Sequence record: PZ179882.1
Length of the DNA stretch: 64,000 bases
Reading direction: 5' to 3' (one strand)
From: a phage
In this document: in pieces, positions 17,959 through 22,226 of the stretch
Numbering within the stretch: the first letter of the stretch is position 1
Layout: each line of letters begins with the position of its first letter
The notes under the pieces: model-generated
What the model saw: the letters and a program-made list of their open reading frames with translations, nothing else
What the model was told of the DNA's origin: nothing
The model's database searches: none
Program-made: the position numbers and the translations under genes

Positions 17959-18429
17959 TTAATCATGTTTCCACACCCCATCGGTATTTGACCAAAGTCG
18001 CTGATTATCTGATCCTCGCCACAGCTTTTTGGTCGGAAGATTTTTCTCATACTTCCCATCAATAATAACATCAACATATTTAAGCATTTCTAGTTGTTTA
18101 ATATCTTCAAATTTATATCCTGTCCACAACCAAATGCTTTTATTGGGATAAAGATTTTTTACTGTTTGAACAATGCAATGAACAACATCTCGGTTATCAG
18201 GATAGAGAGGGTCTCCTCCAGTTATAGTTAATCCTTCTATATAATCATTATTCAAACATTCAATTAATTGTTCTAGTGTTTCACCAGTGAATGGAACGCC
18301 ATTTCTAGCGTTCCATGTTGATTTATTATAACACCCTTCACATTTATGCAAACAACCTGTAACGAAAAGAACGACCCTGCATCCAGGGCCATTCACAAAA
18401 TCGCAAGGATAAAATCTATCATAATTCAT
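17959..18429 (-). CDS. nrdG: anaerobic ribonucleotide reductase activating protein (radical SAM)
   Basis: 156 aa; GCLHKCEGCYN radical-SAM cysteine motif. Confidence 0.9.
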   Translation of the reverse strand: MNYDRFYPCDFVNGPGCRVVLFVTGCLHKCEGCYNKSTWNARNGVPFTGETLEQLIECLNNDYIEGLTITGGDPLYPDNRDVVHCIVQTVKNLYPNKSIWLWTGYKFEDIKQLEMLKYVDVIIDGKYEKNLPTKKLWRGSDNQRLWSNTDGVWKHD

Positions 18430-20243
18430 TGGTGTTTAACCCTATGCATGATTTCTTTATTTTTTCCAAGATTAAATCCGCGCTCGTTCGGATTTCCCAA
18501 ATAGCCACATGTTCTTCTTATTGTGTTCATCTTTTTAGGATCAGTTTCTCCACAAATAGAACAAACAAATCCGTTTTCAGTAGGAGTCATTTCATGGGTA
18601 CTTCCACACGTAAAACATTTATCTACTGGCATATTAACACCAAAATAATCTAAATGTTGTGCAGCATAATCCCATACAGCCTCAAGACCTTTTAGATTAT
18701 TTTTCATATCAGGAAGTTCAACATAAGAAATGTGACCGCCTGTCGCGATGAAATGATATGGGGCTTCGCGAGAAATCTTTTCAAACGGAGTAATATTTTC
18801 TTCTACTGAAACATGGAAACTGTTAGTGTACCAGCCTTTATCGGTAACATCTTTTACACTTCCATATTTTTCGGTATCAAGTTTACAGAAGCGATAGCAC
18901 AGGTTTTCAGCAGGAGTAGAATACAAGCTAAAAGCAAAACCAGTTCTTTCAGTCCACTGCTTAAGATGAGCATTCATTTTAGTTAAAATTTCTTGTCCAA
19001 TATCACGACCGACAAGAATATTCAATTCGTGAATACCAATGTATCCTAAGGACACTGAACTTCTACCGTTTTTAAATAACTCAATTATATCGTCATCGGG
19101 TTTAAGACGAACCCCGAATGCACCTTCTTGATAAAGAATAGGAGCAACAGTAGCTTTAACTCCTTTTAAGGAACTAATTCTACACATCAATGCTTCAAAA
19201 CATAAATTCATTCGCTCATTGAACAATTCAGTAAATTTCTGTTCATTGAACTGTGTTCCAATATAAGAATCTAACGCAATACGAGGAAGATTCAGTGTTA
19301 CAACACCAAGATTATTACGTCCATCAAGAATTTCATTACCAGTCGAATCTTTCCATACGCCCAAGAAACTACGGCAACCCATTGGAGAAACAGGAATAGA
19401 TGAACCAGTGATAGCTTTATTGTTCTTAGCTGAAATAATATCAGGATACATTCTTTTGCTTGCACACTCTAGAGCAAGCTGCTTAATATCATAGTTCGGA
19501 TCGTCTTTATAAAGATTAACACCCTCTTCAACGAACATAACAAGTTTAGGGAAAATAGGAGTTATCCCATCACGACCGAGACCTTTAATACGATTTTTCA
19601 GAATTGCTTTCTGAATCATTCGTTCAGTCCAGTCAGTTCCAGTACCAAATGTAATTGTTACAAAAGGCGTTTGTCCATTTGAACTAAAGAGAGTATTTAC
19701 TTCATATTCATAAGCTTGGAACGCATCGTATACGTCTTTTTCTGTTTTAGATTGGGCATAATTCAATGCATCAGCGATTTGCCATTTTTCTGCGTCCTCA
19801 ATATGTTTTGCATAGGTGCGTTTAACATAAGGAGAAAGTACTTTGTCTACATTCGCAAAAGTCGTTCCGCCGTATTGATGGGAAGCAACTTGCGCAGTAA
19901 TTTGCGCCATAATTGCAGTAGCAACGCCAATTGATTTAGGAGTTTCAATCTGTGCATTACCAAGCTTAAATCCGTTTTCAAGCATTCCTTTTAAATCTAC
20001 TAAACAGCAATTAGTAAATGGAAGAGCAGGGGAATAATCAATATCGTGGAAATGGATAATTCCGCTTTCATGCGCTTTCATAATAAAAGACGGGACCATA
20101 TTTTTGGCAATGTGTTTAGACACAATACCAGCCATAAGGTCCCGTTGAGTTGGAAAAACACGAGAATCTTTATTAGCATTCTCGTTTAAAAGGTCTTTAT
20201 TAGTTTTATGAATCAATCCTTCAATTTCTTTTTCAATTGTCAT
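18426..20243 (-). CDS. nrdD: anaerobic ribonucleoside-triphosphate reductase, uninterrupted
   Basis: 605 aa continuous ORF; C-terminal glycyl-radical motif RRTCGYLG and Zn-ribbon cysteines. No intron present. Confidence 0.93.
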   Translation of the reverse strand: MTIEKEIEGLIHKTNKDLLNENANKDSRVFPTQRDLMAGIVSKHIAKNMVPSFIMKAHESGIIHFHDIDYSPALPFTNCCLVDLKGMLENGFKLGNAQIETPKSIGVATAIMAQITAQVASHQYGGTTFANVDKVLSPYVKRTYAKHIEDAEKWQIADALNYAQSKTEKDVYDAFQAYEYEVNTLFSSNGQTPFVTITFGTGTDWTERMIQKAILKNRIKGLGRDGITPIFPKLVMFVEEGVNLYKDDPNYDIKQLALECASKRMYPDIISAKNNKAITGSSIPVSPMGCRSFLGVWKDSTGNEILDGRNNLGVVTLNLPRIALDSYIGTQFNEQKFTELFNERMNLCFEALMCRISSLKGVKATVAPILYQEGAFGVRLKPDDDIIELFKNGRSSVSLGYIGIHELNILVGRDIGQEILTKMNAHLKQWTERTGFAFSLYSTPAENLCYRFCKLDTEKYGSVKDVTDKGWYTNSFHVSVEENITPFEKISREAPYHFIATGGHISYVELPDMKNNLKGLEAVWDYAAQHLDYFGVNMPVDKCFTCGSTHEMTPTENGFVCSICGETDPKKMNTIRRTCGYLGNPNERGFNLGKNKEIMHRVKHQ

Positions 20244-20713
20244 TTTAAACTCTTTCTAAGCTGCTTCTTAAATGAAGCTATTAACTGTGTTTTAGTATCA
20301 GATTCATTATATTCAAATCCTCTTTGAAGCATCTCGGCCATCATTTCCTCTTTTCCTAAACGAGAAAATTCCTTTGATTTATCTCCAACAAAGTTAGGGT
20401 GAATATTATTTTGGGTGTAATCGGATTTTAAATAAGTAAGTAAATTTTCTAACCATTCAAGATAATCAACACCTTGTCCCTTTAAGCCAGAACGATTAAA
20501 TTTATGCTTCATTTGACCTTCTGCGGCATTGCAGAGATTACAAAGCAATCCACGTATCTTTCCTGCTTTTGGTCCATTTAATTCATGGTCATGATCAAGA
20601 TGATTAGCTTGAACATCAGGATTTAGTTCTCGTTGGCAAATTAAGCATTTACCGTTTTGTGCATTATAAAATTTTTGTTTTTCTTCTTTGTATAATTTGC
20701 CAGTCAATAACAT
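20240..20713 (-). CDS. 49: endonuclease VII (Holliday junction resolvase)
   Basis: 157 aa with CLICQ and HxH plus CNLCN zinc-binding motifs; size matches T4 gp49. Confidence 0.9.
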   Translation of the reverse strand: MLLTGKLYKEEKQKFYNAQNGKCLICQRELNPDVQANHLDHDHELNGPKAGKIRGLLCNLCNAAEGQMKHKFNRSGLKGQGVDYLEWLENLLTYLKSDYTQNNIHPNFVGDKSKEFSRLGKEEMMAEMLQRGFEYNESDTKTQLIASFKKQLRKSLK

Positions 20714-20720
20714 AATAAAA

Positions 20721-20745
20721 CCCTTACCTTAAATAGATAAGGGTA
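20721..20745 (-). promoter_or_regulatory. hairpin immediately upstream of the gene 49 start
   Basis: acccttaccttaaatagataagggt forms a 7-bp stem. A structure sequestering the gene 49 initiation region in long transcripts is known in T4. Confidence 0.4.
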
Positions 20746-20755
20746 TTTATTATTT

Positions 20756-20932
20756 TTAAGTATTGTAAAACATTCGATGCAATCGTTTATACTGTCGAAT
20801 CATCTTTTTAGTAGGACGAGAATAGGTTCCTACGCAAGTGGTCATATGAGGGTCCGTAGAATGTCCTTTAATAAAAAGTTTCCAAACCTTACCGCCATTT
20901 AACTTTTCAGTATAAACCAATTCGGTTTTCAT
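20756..20932 (-). CDS. small ORF (58 aa) with a pin-like C-terminus
   Basis: Hand translation: MKTELVYTEKLNGGKVWKLFIKGHSTDPHMTTCVGTYSRPTKKMIRQYKRLHRMFYNT. The last 14 aa nearly repeat the Pin C-terminus. Below the 60-aa ORF-track cutoff. Confidence 0.35.
   Translation of the reverse strand: MKTELVYTEKLNGGKVWKLFIKGHSTDPHMTTCVGTYSRPTKKMIRQYKRLHRMFYNT
20759..20812. repeat. direct repeat copy A (about 52 bp; partner at 20974-21027)
   Basis: tattgtaaaacattcgatgcaatcgtttatactgtcgaat... versus tattataaaacatttgatgcaatcgcttatattgccgaat..., roughly 85 percent identical. Confidence 0.6.
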
Positions 20933-20969
20933 TAAAATGTCCTGTCAGAAAAAGAATTTTGAGTTTTTT

Positions 20970-21455
20970 TCAAGTATTATAAAACATTTGATGCAATCGC
21001 TTATATTGCCGAATCTTTTGGTCAGAAAAAGAAATTTGAGTTTCAAGCCATTCAATGTACTCTGCGGCAGCTTGCATCAGGTTACCTTCATAGCCATCGT
21101 TATTTTCTTGCGCAGCTAATTTAGCTAATGCGTATGAAATACGTTCACCTTGAAAAGAGGCTTCAGGCTTCTGAACATCTTGGCTAGTTCTCTCTACAAC
21201 TTCTTCAATTTCGCCATTTTCGACTGATTCAGTATTCCACAAGCACCAATACGTAATTGGCTTATCGTAGATGTTAATAATCTTTCCGTCGGAAAGTTCA
21301 ATTTCAATAATTCCAGTATCAGGTTCTATATCATCTTCACATTCTTTTGCAAGTTCACGAACTTTAAAGACAGTACCTGCACTAAGTTCCGGCCAGTAAT
21401 TACACAGCCCTATATCAACACGATTAATTCTAAACCACTTATCTACTGTAATCAT
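20970..21455 (-). CDS. pin: protease inhibitor Pin
   Basis: 161 aa from the ATG giving MITVDKWFRINRV; the ORF track extends it to a TTG. Size and position after gene 49 as in T4. Confidence 0.7.
   Translation of the reverse strand: MITVDKWFRINRVDIGLCNYWPELSAGTVFKVRELAKECEDDIEPDTGIIEIELSDGKIINIYDKPITYWCLWNTESVENGEIEEVVERTSQDVQKPEASFQGERISYALAKLAAQENNDGYEGNLMQAAAEYIEWLETQISFSDQKIRQYKRLHQMFYNT
20974..21027. repeat. direct repeat copy B (inside the pin 3' end)
   Basis: Partner of 20759-20812; a second short repeat gtcagaaaaagaa(a/t)tttgagttt occurs at 20943-20966 and 21021-21044. Confidence 0.6.
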
Positions 21456-21750
21456 GTCCCATCTCCATATCAATTAAGTCATTTATCGTTGGTTCATTAT
21501 ATACTGTTTCTTCATCAGTGTAAACCGGTTCTTCCGGCTCTGGCTCTACAGTTTCCCATCTAGCCGCCCACCAAGGTTTAACCCCGAAGCTTATTAAGTT
21601 CTTCATAATCAATCCAGGATTCTAATCCTGATGGCAAATCAGATTCAATTTCCCAAAGAAGCTCTTCAATTTTCTGAAGACGATCTAGTTCTTCGGCTGG
21701 AATAGTAACCATTGACGGAGCTCGTGATACATTAATATCGTAAATCATAT

Positions 21751-21966
21751 TTACCCCAATTTAACCATACAATCGCCGTATTTCCACTTAGAAATAGACT
21801 TTTCACCATTAGAATAATAAACTTCGAGTTTAGCACGATTATTTTTAATTTGAATAACCTTGGCTGTCATCAAAGTTCCATACCCATAATAAACTGCAAC
21901 TTCATCACCTACATATACCGCGCTTCCGCGGTAATCATGAATATAGTCAGTTCCTTCGAGCATCAT
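21751..21966 (-). CDS. hypothetical protein
   Basis: 71 aa ORF just downstream of nrdC. Confidence 0.45.
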   Translation of the reverse strand: MMLEGTDYIHDYRGSAVYVGDEVAVYYGYGTLMTAKVIQIKNNRAKLEVYYSNGEKSISKWKYGDCMVKLG

Positions 21967-22226
21967 TTAAAATATTCTCGCAGTTGGTCAAATCCACCAA
22001 TATGACTTCCATCAGGAGCAAATACCTGGGGCATTGTCAAGCCGATTTGAGTATCACGACCTAGTTTAGTCAGAAGCTCAGCAATTTTCTCATCATCAAA
22101 AACACCTTTTTCCGGCATAATGTTGATAAATTCAAACGGCTGTTTCTTCACGGTCAAAAGACGTTTTGCATTATCGCAATACACACATTTATGAATGTTG
22201 CTATCATAACCATATACTTTAAACAT
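21963..22226 (-). CDS. nrdC: thioredoxin/glutaredoxin NrdC
   Basis: 87 aa with CVYC redox motif. Confidence 0.88.
   Translation of the reverse strand: MFKVYGYDSNIHKCVYCDNAKRLLTVKKQPFEFINIMPEKGVFDDEKIAELLTKLGRDTQIGLTMPQVFAPDGSHIGGFDQLREYFK

Follow-up and report, generated by a model that had tools for sequence, protein, structure and literature searches.

Direct repeats behind the pin gene of a T-even-type phage indicate that T4-type Pin took its C-terminus from the neighbouring gene DUF7279

The pin gene of phage T4 encodes PinA, the reference phage inhibitor of the host protease Lon and still a reagent (e.g. PMC8835725). MEROPS and Pfam list it as Inhibitor_I24. We analysed a window of 64,000 nucleotides (nt) of phage DNA (sequence record PZ179882.1) in which a T4-like pin is followed on the minus strand by an open reading frame (ORF) of 58 amino acids (aa) and by gene 49, and in which direct repeats link the 3′ ends of pin and of the small ORF. 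The window stems from a T-even-type phage, a Tequatrovirus similar to RB32 and RB33, and over 20650-21500 the nearest records share 99.5 % identity with it. Its pin is not in itself distinct from that of T4, being also 161 aa long and collinear over the full length, with the same junction and tail; the novelty lies in reading residues 147-161 as derived from DUF7279, the Pfam family of the small ORF. A second described system comes close, the promoter-early stem-loop (PeSL) cassettes which, as Arbiol and colleagues reportedly found, accompany modular shuffling in hyperplastic regions of T4-type genomes. Here too the region varies among close relatives, and the small non-essential ORFs that separate its conserved genes come, go and recombine by way of short repeats. 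The locus differs from such cassettes in that the recombining sequence is the coding 3′ end of a gene rather than an early promoter with a stem-loop, and in that an in-frame chimeric protein is among the outcomes.

We consider it very probable that the repeats are the trace of two rearrangements where pin meets DUF7279, a deletion that fused the two genes and the later regain of a DUF7279 copy. The features of this boundary are as follows, the labels native, captured and fossil anticipating the reading argued below.

20756-20932, minus strand: intact DUF7279 gene, 58 aa (RB32 ORF078c / RB69 ORF087c family), matching PF23945 and phrog_3272
20756-20803, minus strand: R1′, putative native copy of the tail, DUF7279 codons 44-58 (MIRQYKRLHRMFYNT) and TAA stop codon
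20932-20967, minus strand: putative fossil of the native 3′ end of pin, holding R2′ (20944-20966), now untranslated leader and Shine-Dalgarno region of DUF7279
20964-20970, minus strand: A-run at the putative duplication junction, 7 A including the last base of the pin TGA, reading CTTGAAAAAAACTC
20970-21017, minus strand: R1, putative captured tail, pin codons 147-161 (KIRQYKRLHQMFYNT) and TGA stop codon, sharing 41/48 nt with DUF7279 codons 44-58 and stop
21021-21043, minus strand: R2, putative native copy of the short repeat, pin codons ~138-145, (E)TQISFSD, 22/23 identical to 20944-20966
21018-21455, minus strand: pin codons 1-146, body of the native Pin (PinA, Lon inhibitor), matching Inhibitor_I24 and phrog_2167
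20970-21455, minus strand: pin, 161 aa counted from ATG

A direct-repeat search on the minus (coding) strand returned a long repeat, 20750-20801 against 20964-21015, with 45 of 52 nt (87 %) identical, a spacing of 214 and a longest perfect run of 10 nt, together with a short repeat, 20944-20966 against 21021-21043, with a spacing of 77. Restricted to the last 15 codons and stop of both genes (20756-20803 against 20970-21017) the identity of the long repeat is 85 %, and its similarity stops at pin codon 147 and DUF7279 codon 44. The DUF7279 ORF ends in IRQYKRLHRMFYNT and Pin in IRQYKRLHQMFYNT, identical at 13 of 14 residues. A sequence-only reading of this stretch had reported both repeats, an identity of about 85 percent and the near-repetition of the Pin C-terminus by the end of the small ORF. 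All of this holds, its repeat coordinates standing with small shifts, except that the outer limits of 20812 and 21027 lie about 10 nt too far out. Randomising 20400-21800 200 times under a first-order Markov model gave best direct matches of 30.1 +/- 1.1 for 52-mers (maximum 36) and of 17.1 +/- 0.7 for 23-mers (maximum 20), so that both observed values, 45 and 22, lie far above the null and the identity did not fall to background on alignment. The repeats are short, the one thing to be said for their being an assembly artefact or a product of chance or convergence; this explanation is scarcely credible given these scores, a likeness that extends to synonymous sites and the 3′ flank, and the presence of the same junction in 114 independent records.

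The 58-aa ORF is 100 % identical to a protein of RB33 and matches DUF7279 (PF23945) with 62.7 bits (cut-off 24.5; residues 7-56 on profile positions 1-53 of 53) and phrog_3272 with E = 3.4e-34 over residues 1-58; its homologs carry the existing annotation 'RB32 ORF078c / RB69 ORF087c-like'. Using tblastn we identified DUF7279 homologs in 358 phage records from Tequatrovirus, Dhakavirus (JS98), Gaprivervirus (VR7, VR26), Mosigvirus (ESCO47, ST0, Shf125875) and Gelderlandvirus (S16), while a more distant homolog occupies the same location in Moonvirus Merlin (hhalign probability 94.8 %, E = 4.9e-8). The family spans six genera of Tevenvirinae, phages without pin included, is confined to T-even-type enterobacterial phages and comprises 19 clusters at 90 % identity and ~3 at 50 % among 1.84 billion representatives. 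Two further products of an exhaustive search were left out of it, P0054, which is repetitive, and P0055, a protein of 1089 aa with eight short matched stretches (E = 1.5e-05). The ratio pN/pS against six relatives is 0.11-0.38, consistent with purifying selection, and AlphaFold2, run on a 17-sequence alignment, modelled DUF7279 with a mean pLDDT of 90 as three beta strands and a C-terminal helix (42-54). On the grounds of purifying selection and a confident predicted fold DUF7279 is a real protein-coding gene, whose expression is predicted. The shared tail falls within the predicted C-terminal helix, and five of the nine columns that are invariant in a six-genus alignment belong to it (R46, K49, R50, R53 and F55), making it the most conserved part of the family. 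A search of the model against Protein Data Bank (PDB) folds returned nothing significant (best E = 0.34, with scattered, likewise non-significant hits to folds resembling the double-stranded RNA-binding domain), and matches in BFVD were to family members only.

The sequence-only reading had taken the small ORF for a new 'pin-tail' ORF, created when the 3′ end of pin was partly duplicated downstream. Tails that are 85-87 % identical in DNA, the position of the ORF directly downstream of pin and the fact that R2′ truly is a copy of pin sequence all agree with such an origin. It is nevertheless highly improbable, and its direction should be reversed, because DUF7279 with its tail occurs where Pin is tail-less or absent. 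The ORF and tail are found in six genera in phages with a tail-less Pin or without pin, making the ORF a conserved independent gene in relatives that show no repeat structure; it has its own Pfam family, whose profile includes the tail while the Pin profiles exclude it; and the tail sits within the predicted helix, as the most conserved segment of the protein.

The Pin side of the comparison leads to the same direction. Pin of the window matches Inhibitor_I24 (PF10465) with 157.9 bits (cut-off 27; residues 4-141 on profile positions 2-135 of 136) and phrog_2167 over residues 1-146, covering 146 of 146 profile positions. Residues 147-161 fall outside both profiles and match instead phrog_3272 positions 44-58. 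The Pin body is collinear with the 148-aa native Pin of the HY01 type up to ...ETQISFSD(R/Q), and its R2 segment is kept in other genera (...AQLRFSD, ...RLEFSD). Native Pins are 136-152 aa long and end ...SFSDRAF or similar before the stop. The ending takes the form FSD(R/K/E)(A/V)F in HY01-type Tequatrovirus, Dhakavirus, Gaprivervirus, Moonvirus and Kanagawavirus. Those of Tequatrovirus HY01, EPIMAM01, Aplg8 and LF73P3 end in ...AAAEYIEWLETQISFSDRAF and the Pin-like ORFs of Dhakavirus and Gaprivervirus in ...WLEAQLRFSDEAF, in each case without a tail, as do those of Merlin (...QLKFSDKAF), Kanagawavirus (...RLEFSDRAF), Karamvirus (...QLEFNSRKF) and Mosigvirus (...YLERRLS). No DUF7279 homolog lacks the tail, not even in phages without pin (ST0, Shf125875, S16), and DUF7279 with its tail occurs together with a tail-less Pin in ESCO47, tp3, HY01, Merlin, JS98 and VR7. 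These comparisons indicate that T4-type Pin took its last 15 residues from DUF7279, residues 147-161 of T4 PinA being foreign to the Pin family.

A tail ancestral to Pin, repeatedly lost from it and gained from it by DUF7279 long ago, would reverse this polarity and make the tail-less Tequatrovirus arrangement the derived one. It would accord with the fused form being the commonest in sequenced Tequatrovirus (~417/507 records), and we nonetheless give it very little credence. It requires independent convergence on ...FSD(R/K)AF with a stop in at least five genera. Within Tequatrovirus the tails of Pin and DUF7279 differ by 3-7 nt of 48, which speaks for a recent copy, whereas the DUF7279 tails of Mosigvirus, S16 and Merlin are far more diverged and yet there is no Pin tail in those phages. 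Among 33 Pin clusters and 732 Pin-matching phage records no outgroup Pin with a diverged tail was found. Capture of the tail by Pin from DUF7279 remains the reading we follow below. Tequatrovirus DUF7279 tails show 0 nonsynonymous and 2-3 synonymous differences, whereas 1-3 nonsynonymous changes have entered the Pin tails (R53 to Q throughout, R46 to Q in T4 and H52 to N in four IMG/VR genomes), several of them at columns invariant or nearly invariant in DUF7279. This suggests, on small counts, that constraint on the Pin copy of the tail is relaxed or altered.

Pin itself has no relative in the PDB and no solved structure, and an AlphaFold2 model from the single sequence was unusable (pLDDT 38). 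In Dhakavirus JS98 (comparison locus L003, 1029-1504) each half of Pin has an ORF of its own and the order is swapped, a 57-aa ORF matching Pin 102-146 (E = 2e-10) preceding a 100-aa ORF that matches Pin 9-79 (E = 8e-5). The second ORF at the corresponding place in VR7 (L004, 1056-1501), orf83, shows no obvious similarity to Pin in a comparison made by eye only.

Three architectures of the locus could be distinguished in Tequatrovirus. In type A, represented by HY01, the sequence runs ...ACTCAAATTTCTTTTTCTGACCGAGCATTTTAATGAAAAC..., the TAA of a 148-aa Pin overlapping the ATG of DUF7279 (TAATG), and the leader hairpin of gene 49 comes next. In type B, represented by T4, 137 nt are absent, the gap opening right behind GACCGA and closing right ahead of ATGATTC, and pin codon 146 runs in frame into DUF7279 codon 44; the gene 49 leader follows and T4 is left without DUF7279. 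Type C, to which the window, RB32/RB33 and an IMG/VR genome (L014) belong, has the fused pin of T4, then TGA, the A-run, AAACTCAAAATTCTTTTTCTGACAGGACATTTTAATG and an intact DUF7279. In Mosigvirus as well as in types A, B and C the gene 49 leader follows the tail in conserved form, and it is the shared right-hand boundary of all architectures. In an alignment of the window with RB33, T4, HY01, Aplg8 and EPIMAM01 the 137-nt gap of T4 and a 77-nt insertion of type C fall at identical positions, and the spacings are consistent with one another, since 214 (long repeat) less 137 (deletion) gives 77 (short repeat). The inserted stretch includes a 36-nt apparent fossil which in the old pin frame reads KTQNSFSDRTF and a stop, to be compared with the native Pin end ETQ(I/N)SFSDRAF and stop of HY01, Aplg8, EPIMAM01 and LF73P3, and whose TAA overlaps the ATG of DUF7279 just as in native type A phages. 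The A-run has 7 A in the window and 6 A in RB33 and the IMG/VR genome, although these genomes are otherwise near-identical. All Pin tails of types B and C share an identical junction position and a derived CAA (Gln) in place of the CGA (Arg) of DUF7279, which points to a single fusion event.

Frequencies were counted over 50,697 phage records, with junction-specific queries telling the architectures apart. The Pin body was present at >=80 % identity in 507 records and the fused junction peptide, at the same threshold, in 417; the type C junction occurred in 114; DUF7279 was found at >=95 % identity in 117 records and at 80-95 % in a further 78. We estimate ~300 records of type B, 114 of type C and 66-78 of type A, and the Pin protein clusters sort into classes of 161 aa and 148 aa. 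Coverage in an 851-nt search was rejected as a classifier, as joined pieces bring type B to ~82 % coverage.

Judged by outgroup comparison, type A is the ancestral arrangement. From this start, a 148-aa Pin ending ...ETQISFSDRAF and a TAATG overlap with DUF7279, a deletion of 137 nt with little or no microhomology would have fused pin codon 146 to DUF7279 codon 44; the alignment displays the missing stretch, from which we infer the event. The outcome would be the 161-aa T4-type Pin, carrying most of the DUF7279 C-terminal helix as its last 15 residues, and the destruction of DUF7279 (type B). Type C would then have arisen by one of two routes, either an unequal crossover of type B with type A at the A-run, or a tandem duplication of 214 nt, the first copy of which then underwent the same deletion. 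By either route an intact DUF7279 would be placed behind the fused pin, joined at the A-run, where the sequence can be read as ...CTTGAAAA, the end of the DUF7279/T4-type tail with its 3′ flank, continued by AAACTC... (pin codons 137-138). The leftover native end of pin would constitute the short repeat, reused as the leader of DUF7279. Within that leader CGAGC of type A has become AGGAC in type C, with AGGA 7 nt before the ATG, and such a stronger Shine-Dalgarno sequence may have compensated for translation of DUF7279 no longer being coupled to that of pin. The suspicion of the sequence-only reading that this is a footprint of illegitimate recombination and duplication is thereby borne out, with deletion and duplication junctions resolved to the base. 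The mechanism, deletion fusion and unequal crossover in a plastic T-even region, is familiar; its specific consequence, that the PinA on which all Lon biochemistry has relied would be a chimera, is new.

Certain points weigh against this history. The proposed Shine-Dalgarno compensation involves two substitutions, the microhomology of 0-1 nt at the deletion junction is too little to specify a mechanism, and expression of DUF7279 in this phage is itself a prediction from sequence. The history has been blurred by recombination, which is heavy in these phages: a DQK variant of the junction turns up in B as well as C genomes, and the types partly interleave in their pin-body identities. The order may have been A to B to C or A to duplication to C to B. 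The sampled type B tails end in CTTGAAAATAA, like type A, and type C DUF7279 ends in CTTAAAAATAA, which weakly argues against derivation of the sampled B genomes from present-day C. No canonical slippery site was evident in the type A sequence that would join pin to DUF7279 by frameshifting or read-through.

The sequence-only reading had further proposed that the repeats could drive deletion or amplification of pin. In the window they bracket the body of DUF7279 and the fossil pin end, not pin, and their recombination would cost the phage DUF7279 and lead to the T4 arrangement while keeping pin intact; such a crossover is expected to be rare because the longest perfect run is only 10 nt. The repeats themselves are most likely functionless. 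As a genome feature they are ordinary, and nothing points to a function for them. A mobile cassette of the PeSL type was rejected as their source, since they hold no early sigma-70 promoter and are coding, and the only hairpin nearby is the gene 49 leader, present in a single copy; a promoter scan found no promoter-like site within 20700-21050, the sites found lying at 21445-21648. Insertion by a homing endonuclease was not supported either, pin and DUF7279 matching their own families only; a MobE-like HNH gene lies upstream in VR7 and is not present in the window. The other ORFs of the interval between pin and gene 49 (20713-21455) are short overlapping mechanical ORFs of 36-60 aa, annotated in no relative and left out of the scans against family libraries.

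Loss of pin of the kind suggested is however apparent in Mosigvirus, where genes of the region do get lost through direct repeats of this family. Mosigvirus tp3 and LF82-31 have a second DUF7279 paralog upstream of pin, so that copies flank pin. The locus of ST0 and Shf125875 consists of the upstream copy as far as ...AACTTTTATA followed by the downstream copy from ACGTTTACTAA and the gene 49 leader, and pin is absent; this is the product expected from a tail-tail crossover, at ACTTTTATA, in a tp3-like DUF7279-pin-DUF7279 arrangement. The comparison loci are:

L009 (O157 typing phage 3), 868-1641: Mosigvirus comparison locus
L007 (ST0), 1501-1671: Mosigvirus comparison locus
L006 (Shf125875), 1501-1671: Mosigvirus comparison locus

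The downstream DUF7279 copy of tp3 is frameshifted and annotated as two fragments. Many Mosigvirus pin annotations are ~43 residues too long at the N-terminus, which represents an out-of-frame reading of the upstream DUF7279 paralog. Two further fusions were identified. P0047 (L034 1501-1926, Logan SRR20302901) is an independent Mosigvirus Pin-tail fusion in which ...YLERR is joined to FHRDFYNVY and a stop at an ACGTTT microhomology. P0046, a DUF7279-Pin read-through fusion of 191 aa whose stop codon was lost to a 1-nt deletion, occurs in two assemblies (L035 and L036, 1501-2076; ENA ERZ15185091 and ERZ28615551). P0041 and P0044, annotated 'Pin' proteins of 180-184 aa (e.g. the 'protease inhibitor' of Shigella phage ESh15), were rejected as fusions and attributed to over-extension by the gene caller.

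The three independent fusions of Pin and DUF7279 (T4-type, P0047 and P0046) raise the question of whether capture of the tail was adaptive, the C-terminal helix of DUF7279 being a module that contacts Lon or Pin and DUF7279 acting in the same pathway as Pin. We regard this as unlikely, although several features agree with it. In type A and in Merlin pin and DUF7279 overlap (TAATG or ATGA) and are translationally coupled, the fused frame stays open in ~417 records, and the proteins are oppositely charged, DUF7279 with a pI of 10.2 and a charge of +8.7 and the Pin body with a pI of 4.15 and a charge of -18.5. A motif near the C-terminus, [KR][IL]Hxx[FL]Y, is also weakly similar to KIHSNLYH of sul20, the C-terminal Lon degron of SulA, which is a random coil with Y19 and H20 as its last two residues (PMC8087443). 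Both are basic and aromatic C-terminal segments with H and Y equally spaced (KIHSNLYH against RLH(Q/R)MFYN). They differ in that only 2 identities and 3 conservative matches are found in 8 positions and in that the DUF7279 tail is predicted to be helical and ends YNT; with the 2 identities in 8 picked post hoc, the resemblance is at most a weak lead. Neighbouring genes moreover fuse readily without any functional link, Pin and DUF7279 are each found without the other, and no structural match points to a function. The changes of Pin tails at columns invariant or nearly invariant in DUF7279, with no nonsynonymous change in DUF7279 tails, again suggest relaxed constraint, though the numbers are small. 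Were the capture adaptive, DUF7279 would be another, so far uncharacterised factor by which phages control host proteolysis, T4-type Pin would have become a better or different Lon inhibitor by gaining a basic amphipathic helix, and the classical biochemistry of T4 PinA would describe a chimera rather than the ancestral inhibitor.

Lon inhibition has been shown biochemically for T4 PinA, the fused form, only (original work cited in PMC8835725), and PinA is not degraded by Lon (PMC8835725). Papers citing the PinA work do not mention its C-terminus. A literature search, whose reach did not extend to the primary PinA papers, found no paper on DUF7279, on ORF087c/ORF078c or on a chimeric origin of T4 Pin. 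On the reading preferred here, deletion fusion followed by regain of DUF7279, the reference Lon inhibitor would carry a borrowed C-terminal helix. Close relatives supply natural controls, a 148-aa Pin with DUF7279 in HY01, the 161-aa chimera alone in T4 and the chimera with DUF7279 in RB32/RB33. With these variants it can be tested directly where PinA makes contact with Lon and what role the DUF7279 family plays, and the locus offers an unusually clean base-level example of phage gene fusion, duplication and loss through short coding repeats.

All genes of the stretch from nrdD to nrdC are carried on the minus strand. Besides pin and DUF7279 they and the gene 49 leader are:

18426-20243, minus strand: nrdD
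20240-20713, minus strand: gene 49 (endonuclease VII), 157-aa ORF annotated as endonuclease VII in all relatives, downstream neighbour of DUF7279
20720-20744, minus strand: gene 49 leader hairpin, 10-bp stem followed by TTTATTATG, the gene 49 start, directly 3′ of DUF7279
21439-21612, minus strand: 49.1
21963-22226, minus strand: nrdC

The hairpin contains the Shine-Dalgarno sequence of gene 49 and accords with the known translational control of that gene; PG7 and KLB31 have a different stem-loop at the same position. Ahead of it, at 20745-20755, lies AATAAATA (TATAAATA in Mosigvirus), which is similar to a T4 late promoter. On the minus strand at 21496-21524, within the 49.1 ORF just upstream of pin, TTTACA-17-TATAAT matches a sigma-70/T4-early-like promoter at 11 of 12 positions. 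nrdD is a single uninterrupted ORF of 605 aa, whereas that of T4 is interrupted at the matching position by a group I intron with I-TevII. Between 49.1 and nrdC (21578-21966) ORFs of 56 aa and 71 aa stand in place of T4 49.2 and 49.3; HY01 and Aplg8 hold both kinds of gene there, and the block, varying among close relatives, marks a plastic region.

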